Positions 75 through 5,008 are shown, numbered from the stretch's first letter. The stretch: DNA of 64,000 bases from an uncultured bacterium (GCA_964429585.1 CAYSCN010000001.1:49809-113808), one strand, 5' to 3'. Numbers and translations are program-made. Notes: generated by a model not told the origin, from the sequence alone.

Positions 75-1439
75 TCAGTAGGCGCCTTCTTCCGAGAGAG
101 TTCCGTATGCCGCTGCTTTTTCTTCCGCCGGTCTTATCGTGAGAAGGTCGTAGACGGTAATTATTACTCCCGCCAGGAATGCTATCCCGAAGAAGAATGC
201 TATCGCCATCCAGAGCCTCATGTAGCTTTGTGCCGTCATGTAGCCCAGGCCGAGCATCCTCTCTACGTAAGACTGGATCACGCCTGCCACGCCGAAAGCG
301 AGTCCGATTCCAAGCATGGAAATGGTCATGGTCCAGAAACCTATCTTTCCCAGTTTTTCGTCGAATACCTCTATCCCCTTTAGTTTTGGGAGCATGAAAT
401 ACGCCGCTGTCAGGTTGAGCAACACGTAGGCTCCGAAGAACGCCAGGTGTCCGTGGGACACCGTTACCTGTGACCCGTGCGTGTAATAGTTGATTTGCGG
501 CAGCGTGTGGGCTATCCCCCAGACTCCAGCTCCGAGAAGGTGGTAAACTGCATTGCCCACGGCGTACGTGACCAGTAACCGGTTCTTTATCTCGCCCCTG
601 CGGTGTTTGACGTGGTTCAGGGTGTCGAAGACCATGAATATGATGGGGAGAGGCTCGAGGGCGCTGAAGATTCCGCCCACCCAGAGCCAGTATCTCGGAG
701 CTCCGAGCCAGTAATAATGATGTCCTGTTCCGGCTATCCCGGTGAACAGAAAGAGTCCTATCTCCACGTAGAGCCACTTTTCAACCACTTCTCTGTCGAC
801 ACCGGTCATTTTCAATAGGATGAATGCAATTATCGCTCCCGTCACCAACTCCCAGGCGCCTTCGACCCAGAGGTGGATGACCCACCACCAGTAATACCAG
901 TCGATGGAAGCGTTCTTGTAGAAAGGAACGCCAAAGAGATAGAGGAGTGCCAGAAACACGAGCCCGCCCAGAAGAGTTCCCTGGATAGCGGTCCATCTGT
1001 TCGCTTTGATCATGGTTATACCGATGTTGAACAGGAATATGAGTGCGCCGATTACCACGAGCATATCCAGCGGTCTTGGGATTTCGAGCAGGGGTCTTCC
1101 CTGTGTCCATCCGAACAAAAACCCTATTATTGCCGCCACTCCCGTGAGAACGAGTATCACGAGCTGTATGTAGGCGAGCTTGGTGGAATAGATTTCGCTT
1201 TCGGTTTCTTCCGGGACTATGTAGTAGGCTCCCCCCATGAACCCGAGCAGAAGCCACAGCACGAGCAGATTCGTGTGAATGGCTCTGGCTGTGGCGAATG
1301 GGAACGCATTCACCACCGATTGTGGAATTGTTATGAAATAGTTGAGCGCCAGGTAGAGGCCCACTATGACCTGAAGGACGAACAGTGGCAGAGCCACCAT
1401 GAAATAGACCTTGGCGATTTGCTGTGATTTGTACTTCAT
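75..1439 (-). CDS. norB: Nitric oxide reductase large subunit (cNOR, heme-copper oxidase superfamily)
   Basis: 454 aa, multi-TM. HLWVEGAWE (non-heme Fe His/Glu motif typical of NOR rather than O2 reductases), GTGHHYYW and HGHLAFFG; adjacent to norC. Confidence 0.92.
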   Translation of the reverse strand: MKYKSQQIAKVYFMVALPLFVLQVIVGLYLALNYFITIPQSVVNAFPFATARAIHTNLLVLWLLLGFMGGAYYIVPEETESEIYSTKLAYIQLVILVLTGVAAIIGFLFGWTQGRPLLEIPRPLDMLVVIGALIFLFNIGITMIKANRWTAIQGTLLGGLVFLALLYLFGVPFYKNASIDWYYWWWVIHLWVEGAWELVTGAIIAFILLKMTGVDREVVEKWLYVEIGLFLFTGIAGTGHHYYWLGAPRYWLWVGGIFSALEPLPIIFMVFDTLNHVKHRRGEIKNRLLVTYAVGNAVYHLLGAGVWGIAHTLPQINYYTHGSQVTVSHGHLAFFGAYVLLNLTAAYFMLPKLKGIEVFDEKLGKIGFWTMTISMLGIGLAFGVAGVIQSYVERMLGLGYMTAQSYMRLWMAIAFFFGIAFLAGVIITVYDLLTIRPAEEKAAAYGTLSEEGAY

Positions 1440-1455
1440 CTCATTTCCTCCCTTT

Positions 1456-2160
1456 TCATTTGAGGTTCGACAGGAAGTCGGCCAGCGCTTCGAGTTCGTC
1501 TTCGGAGAGCTGACTCTGTGGGGGCATGGTCGCTCCGGGCCGGACTGACTGCGGGTTTCTGACGAACCTGACGAAGAAGTTCCTGTCGTAACTTGCCCCT
1601 ACTCCGTCCAGCTCTGGCCCCACGTCCCCTCCGACTCCTTCGATGGAGTGACACTGAATGCAGCCCCTGGTTTTAAAGATTGCTGCTCCTTTGGACATTC
1701 CGACTGCCCCCGCCAGGCGGTAGGTGGCCCTTTTCGCCCTGTCCAGGCTGTCCTGTGGCGGCCAGTCGTTGTTGTCGATTTCGCTGATCCACTTCAGAAA
1801 CGCAATCAGATTGCTCACTTCTTCATCGCTCAGATGCTGGTTTGGCATTTTCCTCCACGAATTGGCGAATGCTTTTTCGGGGCTCTTCACTACAAAGGCA
1901 ATCCCTTCTGCTCCCAGCCTGCGGTAGACTTTGGTCATATCCGGAGCGTAGTAGCCGCCGAAGCCCAGAATAGTGTGGCAATCGTTACAGTTGTACTTCT
2001 CCCATACCTTCTTCCCCGCCACGACTTTCGCGTCGAGCCTGTCGGCGTGAGTCAGAACGTGTATCTGCCTCTGAGTGTCGAATGTGAGATAGAGAAACAG
2101 GACCGCCGACGAAAGCGTTCCCACGAGGAAGATCCAGAATGCGGTTTTCTTCGACATCAC
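1456..2160 (-). CDS. norC: Nitric oxide reductase cytochrome c subunit with an extra C-terminal cytochrome c domain
   Basis: N-terminal TM helix, CNDCH...GGYYAPDMT (NorC-like), then a second class I cyt c domain CIQCH...GPEL...MPP. Confidence 0.85.
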   Translation of the reverse strand: MMSKKTAFWIFLVGTLSSAVLFLYLTFDTQRQIHVLTHADRLDAKVVAGKKVWEKYNCNDCHTILGFGGYYAPDMTKVYRRLGAEGIAFVVKSPEKAFANSWRKMPNQHLSDEEVSNLIAFLKWISEIDNNDWPPQDSLDRAKRATYRLAGAVGMSKGAAIFKTRGCIQCHSIEGVGGDVGPELDGVGASYDRNFFVRFVRNPQSVRPGATMPPQSQLSEDELEALADFLSNLK

Positions 2161-2224
2161 CTTTCCCCCTTTCTAAAATTGGTCTCGGTAGCGATAATTA
2201 TATTTGTGGGGGGATTCGAGGTTA

Positions 2225-2238
2225 TTGACCGAAGTCAA
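2225..2238. promoter_or_regulatory. CRP/FNR-family (HcpR/Dnr-like) palindrome 1
   Basis: TTGAC-CGAA-GTCAA in the norC/hao divergent intergenic region. Confidence 0.75.
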
Positions 2239-2271
2239 GCGGTTGGATTTATTGGATGGGTTTTCTCAAAT

Positions 2272-2285
2272 TTGACTTACGTCAA
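2272..2285. promoter_or_regulatory. CRP/FNR-family (HcpR/Dnr-like) palindrome 2
   Basis: TTGAC-TTAC-GTCAA, second perfect copy starting 47 nt after the first. Confidence 0.75.
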
Positions 2286-2375
2286 TTACAGGCGAAAATC
2301 CTCGAAATATCCTTCGGCAGGATAATGTCGGAAGGTGCAGTGAACCAGCCAAACAGAATTGAGGGAGGTGGTGAG

Positions 2376-3695
2376 ATGCACCGTAAAATTGCCTTCTTTG
2401 TACCCGCAGTCCTGCTGTTAACCGTAATTTTTGCCTTCACCGCGGGCCGCTCAGTTGCGTCTACGGTGGGGGTTCCAAAGGGAAGTAAGGCGTGTGTTTC
2501 GTGCCACACCAGGAAGAAAGTCGGCGTGGCCGCCATAGGCGAGTGGCGCCAGTCCACCCACGCGAAGGAGGGAGTTGGGTGTTATGACTGTCATCAGGCG
2601 AAGAAGGGTGAGCCGGATGCGTTCAAGCATTATGGAAAGTACATTGCGATCATCGTGTCGCCCAAGGATTGTGCTGAATGTCATGAGGAGGAAGCGACCC
2701 AGTTTCAGAAATCTCACCACGCGAGAGGAGGCGAGATTCTCGGATCGCTCGACAACTTTTTGGGAGAAGTTGTGGAGGGACCACCGGCTGTCATCAACGG
2801 GTGCAAGCAGTGCCACGGCTCTTACGTGAAGGTGACCAAGGACGGTATGCTTGACCCTTCGACCTGGCCTAACACGGGGATCGGAAGGATAAATCCCGAT
2901 GGTTCAAAAGGTTCCTGCACCGCCTGCCATTCCAGACACTACTTCAGCGCCAAGGTGGCGAGGAGACCCGAGTCCTGCGGAAAGTGCCATCTGGGACCGG
3001 ATCATCCTCAGAAGGAGATCTACGACGAGTCCAAGCACGGCATAGCCTTCTACTCAAACGTGGACAGGATGAACCTGGACAGCGACTCGTGGGTGGTGGG
3101 AGTCGACTACACCGCTGCTCCGACCTGCGCAACCTGCCATATGAGCGCCACGCCGGATATGGAGGCCACGCACGATCCGGGCGAGAGGATCTCCTGGACG
3201 CTCAGACCCGTGGTTTCCAAACACATGGAAAACTGGCAGGAGAAAAGGGAAAACATGAAGAAGGTGTGCATCAACTGTCACAACAGGAGGTATGTGGACG
3301 CTTTCTTCACCCAGTATGATCTATCCATAGAGCTTTACAACGAGAAGTTCGCTAAGCCCGCAAAGGAAATAATGTCGAGGCTCAGAAAAGCCGGCAAGCT
3401 CACGCCCACTCCGTTCGACGAGAAGATCGAGTGGACGTTCTTCTACCTCTGGCACCACGAGGGTAGAAGGGCCAGGCACGGAGCGGCCATGATGGGACCC
3501 GACTACACGCAGTGGCACGGGTTCTTCGAGGTTGCAGAGAGATTCTACTTCGAGCTGGTTCCTGAAGCCGAGGAGCTTCTTCCCGGAGTCACGAAGGACA
3601 TAATCGCTCAGGACCAGCACAAGTGGCTTAAGGGTATAAGCAAGGAGGAGAGAGAGAAGATAATGAAGTTCTATGAGAAGAGGTATGGAGAGTAG
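2376..3695 (+). CDS. Octaheme cytochrome c of the hydroxylamine oxidoreductase (HAO) family, probably reductive type
   Basis: Start moved to ATG 2376 (GGAGG SD, signal peptide). Eight CxxCH motifs (CVSCH, CYDCH, CAECH, CKQCH, CTACH, CGKCH, CATCH, CINCH), GPDHPQ and MGPDYTQWHG. Confidence 0.85.
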   Translation: MHRKIAFFVPAVLLLTVIFAFTAGRSVASTVGVPKGSKACVSCHTRKKVGVAAIGEWRQSTHAKEGVGCYDCHQAKKGEPDAFKHYGKYIAIIVSPKDCAECHEEEATQFQKSHHARGGEILGSLDNFLGEVVEGPPAVINGCKQCHGSYVKVTKDGMLDPSTWPNTGIGRINPDGSKGSCTACHSRHYFSAKVARRPESCGKCHLGPDHPQKEIYDESKHGIAFYSNVDRMNLDSDSWVVGVDYTAAPTCATCHMSATPDMEATHDPGERISWTLRPVVSKHMENWQEKRENMKKVCINCHNRRYVDAFFTQYDLSIELYNEKFAKPAKEIMSRLRKAGKLTPTPFDEKIEWTFFYLWHHEGRRARHGAAMMGPDYTQWHGFFEVAERFYFELVPEAEELLPGVTKDIIAQDQHKWLKGISKEEREKIMKFYEKRYGE

Positions 3696-3901
3696 AGAGG
3701 TGTGGATGCCGGGCCGGTGCTCCATATGGTCCGGCGTCTCCTCTGCATCATCGGGCGCTTCCCCATAACTTCGGGGAGAGGTGGTTGCCTCTCCCCTTTC
3801 TGCTATCGGGATGATATTTTCTCGTTCGGCTTGGCCGGCGGTTTGGCGTCCAGCGTCGTTTATTTTCATGTTGACAGAGGCGGGGAAGCATGGTTATATA
3901 C

Positions 3902-3930: not shown

Positions 3931-4281
3931 GTGAAAATAGACAATAAGCAGATATACGAGATTCACGCGGAGTTCTGCAAGGTAATAGCCAACGCCAAGA
4001 GACTGATGATAATAGCTCTCCTGGAAGAGGGGGAGATGAGCGTGGGCGATATGGCGGAGGCGATGGGCATCTCCATTTCGAACGTCAGCCAGCACCTGAG
4101 GGTCTTAAGGTCTCAGAACATCGTTCAGGTGAGAAAAGAAGGGCAGGTCGTTTATTACAGGCTCACCGAACCCAGGCTTCCCAAACTGTGCAAGGAGATT
4201 AGGGCTCTTCTGCTAAAAATGATGACCAATCAGGGAAAAGTGGCCGAGGGATTCGAGAGCGAGGTTAAGGAGAAAGGCTGA
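3931..4281 (+). CDS. ArsR/SmtB-family transcriptional repressor
   Basis: wHTH motif SNVSQHLRVLR...VRKEGQVVYY; Cys16 and Cys87. Confidence 0.88.
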   Translation: MKIDNKQIYEIHAEFCKVIANAKRLMIIALLEEGEMSVGDMAEAMGISISNVSQHLRVLRSQNIVQVRKEGQVVYYRLTEPRLPKLCKEIRALLLKMMTNQGKVAEGFESEVKEKG

Positions 4282-4308
4282 AATTTTTTTTTTCGTTTTT
4301 TTATTTAC

Positions 4309-4327
4309 TACTTTCGAAGCTTCTAAA
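4309..4327. promoter_or_regulatory. Putative ArsR operator, copy 2 (upstream of tusA operon)
   Basis: TACTTTCGAAGCTTCTAAA, inverted near-copy of 3902-3920. Confidence 0.5.
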
Positions 4328-4361
4328 TTTATCATATTGACAAAGAAAGAGGAGGTGGATC

Positions 4362-4616
4362 ATGACTTCCGAGGAATTGAAGGAACTGAAGGTTGACAAG
4401 GTGGTAGATGCGAGGGGAACAGCGTGCCCGGGGCCTCTTCTCGAGGCGAAAAGGGGAATAGCTTCTGTTCCCAAAGAAGGGGTGATGGAGGTTCTTTCAT
4501 CTGACGAGGCGACGACCGAGGACATTCCGCTATGGTGCAAAAAGGTGGGTCACGAATTCCTCGGAGTTGTTGAGGAACCAGGGTACTGGCGCGTTTTCGT
4601 CCGGAGAAAGAAGTGA
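4362..4616 (+). CDS. tusA: TusA/SirA-family sulfur carrier
   Basis: 84 aa, VDARGTACPGP motif and SSDEATTEDIPLWC; GGAGG SD. Confidence 0.9.
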   Translation: MTSEELKELKVDKVVDARGTACPGPLLEAKRGIASVPKEGVMEVLSSDEATTEDIPLWCKKVGHEFLGVVEEPGYWRVFVRRKK

Positions 4617-5008
4617 CGGGAAAAAGCAGGGGAAAGCCCAGGATCCTCGTGTTCTCGACGGTGAGCATCTCCGATCCGGGCATCGACATGGCGGGTTCCG
4701 CCCACATGGATTACCCGTCTACCGTCGAGGTGATATCACTTCCGTGCTCGAGCTCCATCAGGCCGGATTGGATACTTTACGCTCTCGAGAAGGGGTTCGA
4801 CGGAGTTTTCATCGCTGCCGATGGAGGGGACTGCCCGTATCACCCGGATTGCACGACCCTGACTGGAAAGATCGTCCAGAGGGCCCAGGAGATGATGAGG
4901 GAGAAGGGGGTCGATCCGGGAAGGCTCAAGATGGCGGCGATATGCTCGGTTTGCTCCGAGGCTTTCGTTTCCCACGTGAAAAAGCTCTCGGAGCAACTCG
5001 AAAACTGA
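4613..5008 (+). CDS. mvhD: MvhD/FlpD-like [2Fe-2S] subunit, atypical
   Basis: LPCSSSIRPDWILYALEKGFDGVF..GDC..GVDPGRL; GTGA overlap with tusA. Confidence 0.75.
   Translation: MTGKSRGKPRILVFSTVSISDPGIDMAGSAHMDYPSTVEVISLPCSSSIRPDWILYALEKGFDGVFIAADGGDCPYHPDCTTLTGKIVQRAQEMMREKGVDPGRLKMAAICSVCSEAFVSHVKKLSEQLEN

Follow-up and report, generated by a model that had tools for sequence, protein, structure and literature searches.

The window analyzed here, a stretch of 64,000 nucleotides from an uncultured bacterium (GCA_964429585.1 CAYSCN010000001.1:49809-113808), begins with two divergently oriented transcription units: norCB, for a cytochrome c-dependent nitric oxide (NO) reductase (cNOR), and hao1, for an octaheme cytochrome of the hydroxylamine oxidoreductase (HAO) family. 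This arrangement raises the question of whether both units are controlled together and, if so, whether they form a route from nitrite via NO to N2O that dispenses with NirS and NirK or serve as a two-way sink for nitrite and NO, the two options offered by an initial annotation of this DNA. Our analysis indicates that the co-regulation of norCB and hao1 is well supported by their promoter sequences and that the module is most likely not a new denitrification route but an ordinary, though neatly built, means of defense against NO and nitrite.

The organism, which resembles iron reducers, belongs to Ca. Deferrimicrobia (MBNT15/Deferrimicrobiota lineage) and has a genome of 2.34 Mb with a stated assembly completeness of 100%; positions preceded by C and a number refer to the contigs of this genome. 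The relatives used for comparison belong to the same class, for which 41 genomes were inspected for gene distribution and 29 relatives for norC promoters and the architecture of NorC. In other phyla, the neighborhoods of HAO family genes were analyzed at 80 loci for linkage to nor and at 77 loci for upstream boxes. For high-GC relatives, only tblastn-anchored genes were considered, because simple open reading frame (ORF) calling gave spurious antisense ORFs.

The promoter region between norCB and hao1

The coordinates annotated for norCB (75-2160) and hao1 (2376-3695) agreed with ours, leaving a gap of 215 bp between norC and hao1 (2161-2375). The two perfect TTGAC-N4-GTCAA palindromes reported for this gap, one nearer each gene, were recovered as box 1 (TTGACCGAAGTCAA, 2225-2238), the predicted activator site of the norCB promoter, and box 2 (TTGACTTACGTCAA, 2272-2285), the predicted activator site of the hao1 promoter. 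On the minus strand, a -10 hexamer of the putative norCB promoter, TATAAT, is found at 2197-2202 (read from 2202 to 2197), and on the plus strand a -10-like hexamer of the putative hao1 promoter, TATCCT, is located at 2308-2313. The distance between the centers of box 1 (2231.5) and TATAAT is 32 bp, and the same distance of 32 bp separates the centers of box 2 (2278.5) and TATCCT (2310.5). In class II promoters of the CRP/FNR type, the activator site is centered at -41.5. With start sites inferred from the -10 hexamers, norCB and hao1 would be served by two back-to-back class II CRP/FNR promoters.

Of 29 relatives, 24 had a box with up to one mismatch no more than 260 bp upstream of norC, and in 21 of these 24 promoters a TAnnnT hexamer was found at 32 ± 1 bp from it. 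Boxes were also detected upstream of hao1 orthologues in seven relatives. Beyond the class, 12 of the 77 loci from other phyla contained a box upstream of the hao1 family gene, including four perfect ones, compared to approximately 0.03 expected. The shared control of norCB and hao1 suggested in the initial annotation is thus borne out, as far as sequence can tell, by promoter geometry and by the conservation of the boxes among relatives.

The palindromes could in principle have arisen by chance or represent -35 elements of sigma-70 promoters (TTGACa), and a consensus scan did indeed return TTGACT (2272-2277) together with GAAAAT as a sigma-70-like promoter. However, the two boxes are the only matches in the window, where shuffled sequences predict 0.07 and none of 100 shuffles reached two, and the genome contains five perfect boxes, two of them in the nor-hao gap. 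Furthermore, both halves of the palindrome are constant between genera while the flanks diverge, and the phasing with respect to the -10 hexamer is fixed at 32 bp. Since the half-sites are fixed and the flanks are not, the boxes represent a phylogenetic footprint rather than a chance occurrence, and a simple -35 reading is ruled out; we consider this explanation effectively refuted. Some matches elsewhere were nevertheless taken as chance, namely, a perfect box within lysA (C4:29689) and boxes with one mismatch inside genes near glnB-amtB.

A small regulon and its candidate regulator

The spacing of 32 bp between the box (up to one mismatch) and a TAnnnT/A hexamer was also found in front of five further genes elsewhere in the genome. 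These encode a second HAO paralogue (C8:64326-65576; box TTGATCTCGGTCAA at C8:64251, centered 68.5 bp before the start), a membrane protein with two DUF1858/ScdA_N domains (C15:51828-52727; box at C15:51711), a hemerythrin-cupin protein (C60:3082-3975; box at C60:4054), a NapH/NosR-like polyferredoxin at a contig end (C9:73569-74606; box at C9:73518), and a 151-aa membrane protein without a Pfam match (C5:60036-60491; box at C5:59964). A spacing of 33 bp was observed for a 161-aa ORF that equally has no Pfam match (C15:13145-13630; box at C15:13691). The regulon is small, with about 8 promoters, and the presence of DUF1858/ScdA_N and hemerythrin proteins, which are typical of NO stress, supports its assignment to the NO stress response. 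In many relatives, the gene for the DUF1858 membrane protein follows norB and possesses its own box, whereas here it is found on a contig separate from norB and has kept the box. Since this gene lies elsewhere here and yet retains the box, the constant feature is the shared regulator and not the neighborhood.

The genome encodes two CRP/FNR proteins. One of them (C9:51719-52396; 225 aa; Pfam cNMP_binding and HTH_Crp_2) has the recognition helix AAPETFSRMLKRM (AAPETFSRML), with Pro180, Glu181, and Arg185 in CRP numbering, whereas the helix of the other is CRP-like (RE...K). The HcpR1 motif wyTTGACnnnnGTCAArw of Geobacter, Desulfuromonas, and Desulfotalea is tied to Pro or Ser at position 180 and Glu at position 181 (Rodionov et al. 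2005, PMC1274295). Because the motif is identical and the helix of the C9 protein matches this rule, we classify the box as HcpR1-type, in agreement with the HcpR/Dnr-type motif of Geobacter-type bacteria named in the initial annotation, and the search for hcpR that it had called for thus yields a candidate. The C9 protein is likely to pair with the boxes as an HcpR1/DNR-type activator. Neither CRP/FNR protein contains the N-terminal cysteine cluster of FNR, and for this reason we propose that the C9 regulator probably senses NO through heme. No homologue of this regulator adjoined norCB in any of 20 relatives.

Alternatively, the boxes could be part of an O2-sensing, FNR-like regulon for anaerobic conditions in general or of another global CRP/FNR regulon, with norCB and hao1 as members of an anaerobic respiratory gene set. 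The motif TTGAC/T-N4-A/GTCAA overlaps the FNR consensus, many relatives carry TTGAC-N4-ATCAA, and NCBIfam assigns the C9 regulator only loosely, its best matches (FtrB, CRP, and Fnr) all falling below the cut-off. We regard this alternative as rather improbable, given the missing cysteine cluster, the fit of the Pro180/Glu181 helix to HcpR1, and a regulon of about 8 promoters that comprises NO-related genes and not general anaerobic genes.

The HcpR1 regulon known from Geobacter, Desulfuromonas, and Desulfotalea and from cyanobacteria resembles the present one in its identical motif, in the residues at positions 180 and 181, and in the kinds of targets. Those described for HcpR include norB in Synechocystis, nrfHA in Geobacter, and hemerythrin-, ferredoxin-, and cytochrome c-like genes (PMC1274295), and norB, hemerythrin, ferredoxin, and cytochrome c genes are also the kinds found here. 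There are, however, differences: the main targets here are two HAO family octahemes and cNOR, the regulator is encoded apart from its targets, the lineage is Ca. Deferrimicrobia/MBNT15, and hcp was not found in the genome. The only Prismane family gene, considered as a candidate hcp, encodes a CO dehydrogenase (519 bits with TIGR01702 versus 24.6 bits with TIGR01703). A second parallel is provided by DNR and NnrR of denitrifiers, NO-responsive CRP/FNR activators that act from -41.5 on norCB and on a nitrite reductase gene, as is predicted here; they also drive the accessory genes nnrS and dnrN (hemerythrin/ScdA-type), to which members of this regulon are comparable. Unlike these systems, the present genome contains no NirS/NirK, NosZ, or nitrate reductase, and the nitrite-reducing partner would be an octaheme cytochrome that is probably ammonifying.

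norCB encodes a cNOR with a two-heme NorC

norB (75-1439, minus strand) encodes the 454-aa catalytic subunit of cNOR, with E values of 1.7e-118 to the Pseudomonas aeruginosa subunit 3o0r_B and of 4.6e-111 to 4xyd_A. The identity to NorB of the P. aeruginosa and Roseobacter denitrificans enzymes (3O0R, 4XYD) is approximately 50%. In the alignment to cNOR, all metal ligands and conserved glutamates are retained (H55, H189/E193/E197 in HLWVEGAWE, H240/H241, E262, and H329/H331), and the quinol-binding N-terminal extension typical of quinol-dependent NO reductases (qNOR) is missing. norC (1456-2160, minus strand) codes for 234 aa from a GTG at 2160 or for 233 aa from an ATG at 2157. Residues 1 to 138 align to 3o0r_C (E value of 5.7e-26) and contain the heme c motif CNDCH (residues 58-62) and the ligand Met105, as in the solved enzymes. 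Judged by sequence and ligands, norCB is a cytochrome c-dependent NO reductase.

Unlike 3O0R and 4XYD, NorC has an additional class I monoheme cytochrome c domain at its C terminus (residues ~150-234; window ~1459-1713), with a second heme motif, CIQCH, at residues 167 to 171; residues 156 to 234 match the Pfam families Cytochrom_C and Cytochrome_CBB3. This two-domain fusion is kept at full length in all 29 relatives, and two-heme NorC has 1660 database homologues, mostly of 233 aa, that are common in metagenomes and are usually annotated just as NorC. The genome also encodes a Rieske/cytochrome b complex, with linked cytochromes on contig C50.

hao1 belongs to the reductive branch of the HAO family

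hao1 (2376-3695, plus strand) encodes an IhOCC/epsilon-Hao-like octaheme cytochrome c of 439 aa with eight CXXCH motifs. Its longest ORF begins at 2256, and the ATG at 2376 is the preferred start, with GGAGG at 2364-2368 and homologues aligning from 2376. The N terminus forms a signal or anchor helix, and the fourth CXXCH motif (CKQCH, 2802-2816) is predicted by homology to bind the catalytic heme. The nearest solved relative is IhOCC of Ignicoccus hospitalis (4qo5), with E values of 4e-48 by sequence and 9e-66 by family profile, compared to 6e-19 and 8e-30, respectively, for NeHAO. An AlphaFold model of hao1 (pLDDT of 80) returned 4qo5 as the top Foldseek match (TM score of 0.71), and the group formed by HAO, HOX, HAOr, and HDH scored between 0.53 and 0.61. 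In the structural alignment, identity to IhOCC was only 26%.

The position of the tyrosine that is cross-linked to heme P460 in HAO (Tyr467 of NeHAO) was located in hao1 through the second HAO paralogue of the genome as an alignment bridge, because direct HMMER or profile alignments of hao1 and NeHAO end before the C-terminal region. HMMER aligned NeHAO HVNPGGWTY467TEGW to HMNPD-YAL389WYGW of the paralogue, and BLASTP aligned the latter segment to GPDYTQ379WHGF of hao1. The cross-link position is therefore occupied by Gln379 (3510-3512) or, if the alignment is left ungapped, by Trp380, in line with the absence of the Tyr cross-link implied in the initial annotation. Tyr377 in PDYTQW was considered as the cross-link residue and rejected, since HMMER places NeHAO Tyr467 two residues further on; Tyr377 equals Trp465 of NeHAO and is replaced by Phe in approximately 10% of the close homologues. 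According to these alignments, hao1 has the HAO family fold, falls into the IhOCC/reductive branch, and is devoid of the P460 Tyr cross-link.

IhOCC is a sister to HAO and HDH and an octaheme nitrite reductase without P460 (Soares et al. 2022, PMC9250108), and both IhOCC and epsilon-Hao of Campylobacterota have been described as nitrite and hydroxylamine reductases (PMC8042395, PMC9250108). They share with hao1 the fold, the eight hemes, the N-terminal membrane helix, and the absent Tyr cross-link. This analogy suggests that hao1 may be a reductive enzyme acting on nitrite and hydroxylamine. The opposite direction has also to be considered, namely, that hao1 oxidizes hydroxylamine to NO, which cNOR would convert to N2O, resulting in hydroxylamine detoxification as with methanotroph HAO. 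The HAO family fold, the eight hemes, and the occurrence of family members in Methylococcales are compatible with such a function. It is nonetheless very improbable, since the cross-link position carries Gln or Trp instead of Tyr, the neighboring Tyr377 is not invariant, and the organism is an anaerobe in which the context of an ammonia or methane monooxygenase is missing. Moreover, HAO enzymes that are free of the cross-link act as reductases, with negligible oxidation (PMC8042395).

Anammox HAOr (Kustc0458/0457, PDB 6H5L) is likewise a cross-link-free reductase and shows that NO can be formed by such an enzyme. HAOr, however, has a diheme partner and forms a 60-heme complex in the anammoxosome, whereas hao1 is without such a partner gene and is nearer to IhOCC. 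The nearest solved structure of the 416-aa second paralogue (C8:64326-65576), in turn, is NO-forming HAOr Kustc0458 (E value of 1e-33), and this paralogue has Leu at the cross-link position. The hao1 family of approximately 440 aa comprises more than 8000 database matches at about 60% identity in many phyla, and we found no biochemically characterized member of it in the publications consulted. Downstream of hao1, a terminator-like hairpin (3773-3796, plus strand; 10-bp stem with 7 G-C pairs and a T-rich tail) is located approximately 78 nt past the stop codon; because it would terminate the transcript, hao1 is predicted to be monocistronic.

Distribution of nitrogen oxide enzymes in the genome and its relatives

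The initial annotation had called for a genome search for nirS, nirK, and nrfA, and all three are missing. For NirK, the sole match to the model reached 60.7 bits, compared to a cut-off of 296; this protein (C44:8217-9413, 398 aa) is a two-domain multicopper oxidase with a twin-arginine translocation (TAT) signal and HWHG, HCH, and HxxHxH motifs. Neither a Nap or Nar nitrate reductase nor an Fdh/Psr-type enzyme was found in the genome, the lone molybdopterin match being NuoG. A scan of all genome ORFs for the CuA motif returned no protein, indicating the absence of NosZ; the Pfam nos_propeller search was uninformative, as control genomes were left unmatched. The published genome analysis of the phylum MBNT15/Deferrimicrobiota predicts iron reduction and does not report comparable enzymes for nitrite or NO (PMC9386147).

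Among the 41 genomes of the class, cNOR was present in 34, with or without hao1, whereas NirS and NirK were found in none. cNOR without a canonical Nir is thus the rule in this class. Orthologues of hao1 were present in 14 and NrfA family genes in 19 of the 41 genomes, with an overlap of a single genome (Fisher's exact test, P = 3e-4, phylogenetic non-independence being ignored), in which the nrfA match is reduced to 107 aa and interrupted by two stop codons. This alternation was seen even inside one genus, and 17 of 18 nrfA-type genomes contained cNOR as well. Several nrfA-like genes of sister genomes carry the same TTGAC-N4-GTCAA box upstream. Since hao1 and NrfA alternate and cNOR accompanies either of them, hao1 appears to fill the NrfA slot, and the substrate of cNOR is independent of hao1. 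The NrfA family genes that were inspected (L176 to L190) are mostly octaheme and ONR-like, with one CXXCK and six to seven CXXCH motifs in 540 to 690 aa.

The initial annotation had further proposed that the synteny of hao and nor genes be examined, and the outcome depends on the scale. Across phyla, hao-nor adjacency was rare (2 of 80 loci), whereas in the class it recurs in four layouts: the divergent one described here; hao1, box, norC (G001/L016); norCB, box, hao1 (G027); and a third HAO type followed by a box and norCB (G006). At one of the two loci found across phyla, which belongs to an unrelated uncultured bacterium (L028, 7851-11582), a hao1 family gene is followed 46 bp later on the same strand by a gene for a 756-aa qNOR; in this family member, Phe replaces Tyr377. 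The neighbors of hao1 family genes in other phyla include Rieske/cytochrome b (10 loci), NapC/NirT-type tetraheme cytochromes (9 loci), NarK (8 loci), NasA/NapA-like proteins (5 loci), and a formate/nitrite transporter (NirC-like). These neighborhoods, too, are nitrite-to-ammonium contexts.

A predicted defense against nitrite and NO

IhOCC and epsilon-Hao reportedly release ammonium as a product. The explanation that we favor, and to which we assign a better than even probability, is an HcpR1/DNR-type nitrosative stress regulon in which hao1 stands in for NrfA and cNOR removes NO. According to this model, the appearance of NO or nitrite would cause the HcpR1/DNR-type CRP/FNR activator to bind to one box per promoter. 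The activator would turn on norCB, whose product may reduce NO to N2O with electrons entering at the cytochrome c domain fused to NorC, and hao1, whose product would be a periplasmic or membrane-anchored octaheme cytochrome that converts nitrite, hydroxylamine, or NO to ammonium and replaces NrfA. At least five further promoters would respond, namely, those of the second HAO paralogue, the 2xDUF1858 protein, the hemerythrin-cupin protein, the NapH-like polyferredoxin, and the small membrane protein. Because the genome lacks nitrate reductase, NirS/NirK, NrfA, Hcp, and NosZ, the module is best seen as a defense against, or an opportunistic sink for, nitrite and NO of external origin. Of the two options offered at the outset, the two-way sink for NO and nitrite fits better than denitrification without Nir.

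A competing explanation assigns to hao1 the reduction of nitrite to NO, as in anammox HAOr, and holds that, together with cNOR, it constitutes an energy-conserving truncated denitrification (nitrite to NO to N2O) whose genes are co-activated by NO. This explanation would account for the absence of NirS and NirK here and in the 41 relatives although cNOR is common, and it draws on the production of NO by HAOr in vivo, on the four in-class layouts of hao-NOR adjacency together with the hao-qNOR pair in another phylum, and on the box-bearing paralogue that is nearest to HAOr. Electrons could be fed to cytochrome c by the Rieske/cytochrome b complex, and the same idea has been put forward for Phycisphaerae with norBC and without nir (PMC11266412). 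Against it, cNOR occurs in 34 of the 41 genomes irrespective of hao1, and hao1 alternates with ammonifying NrfA/ONR-type enzymes, so that the role of hao1 as an NO maker for cNOR, implied by the initial annotation, was not upheld. Furthermore, the characterized nearest relatives are nitrite and hydroxylamine reductases, the family neighborhoods in other phyla resemble nitrite assimilation or dissimilatory reduction to ammonium, hao-nor adjacency is rare across phyla, and no nitrate reductase supplies nitrite. We consider an NO-forming hao1 unlikely, though less so than an FNR-like regulon.

Several observations weigh against the stress regulon that we favor. HAOr yields NO with mild electron donors and ammonium with methyl viologen (PMC8042395). 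The gene hcp, the eponymous target of HcpR, is missing, the pairing of regulator and boxes is deduced from a rule on residues and motif, and the alternation of hao1 and NrfA was evaluated without regard to shared ancestry. The recurrent adjacency of hao and NOR genes hints at a functional link that is tighter than shared stress control. Finally, in true denitrifiers the NO sensor also co-activates nir and nor, and for this reason co-regulation alone cannot separate detoxification from respiration.

The module offers a clean regulon, open to testing, in a phylum about which little is known. It would place a very widespread, uncharacterized family of HAO-like cytochromes of approximately 440 aa under NO stress control, and this family alternates with NrfA/ONR-type enzymes. 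Whether ammonium or NO is the product of hao1 decides between nitrogen retention and N2O emission. It is a possible but doubtful proposition that the NO-forming nitrite reductase missing from Ca. Deferrimicrobia is this HAO-like octaheme, either by itself or together with the paralogue that resembles HAOr. If true, an HcpR-like factor that senses NO would co-induce an NO producer and an NO consumer, nitrite respiration ending in N2O would exist in iron-reducing anaerobes that have neither NirS/NirK nor NosZ and would represent an unrecognized N2O source, and a HAOr-type nitrite reductase would for the first time be seen at work outside anammox bacteria. Since the replacement of Nir by HAO-like octahemes beside norBC was suggested earlier for Phycisphaerae (PMC11266412), the concept is not new, and the locus is of interest as a compact system for testing it.

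Neighboring genes and other multiheme cytochromes

About 30 ORFs of the genome contain at least three heme motifs, with up to 40 motifs per ORF. A cluster of giant ones is encoded at C14:43117-61203, with proteins of 2603 aa (33 CXXCH), 2099 aa (40 CXXCH), and 677 aa (13 CXXCH). Just before window position 1, genes for a glnB-like PII protein, AmtB, a porin-like protein, and a PAS domain protein (C1:46718-49838) are convergent with the end of norB. On the other side, the hao1 terminator is followed by genes for an ArsR/BigR-like regulator, TusA, and an MvhD-like protein (3931-5008), which mark the start of an Hdr/Qmo-like cluster that appears to be unrelated to the nor-hao module.

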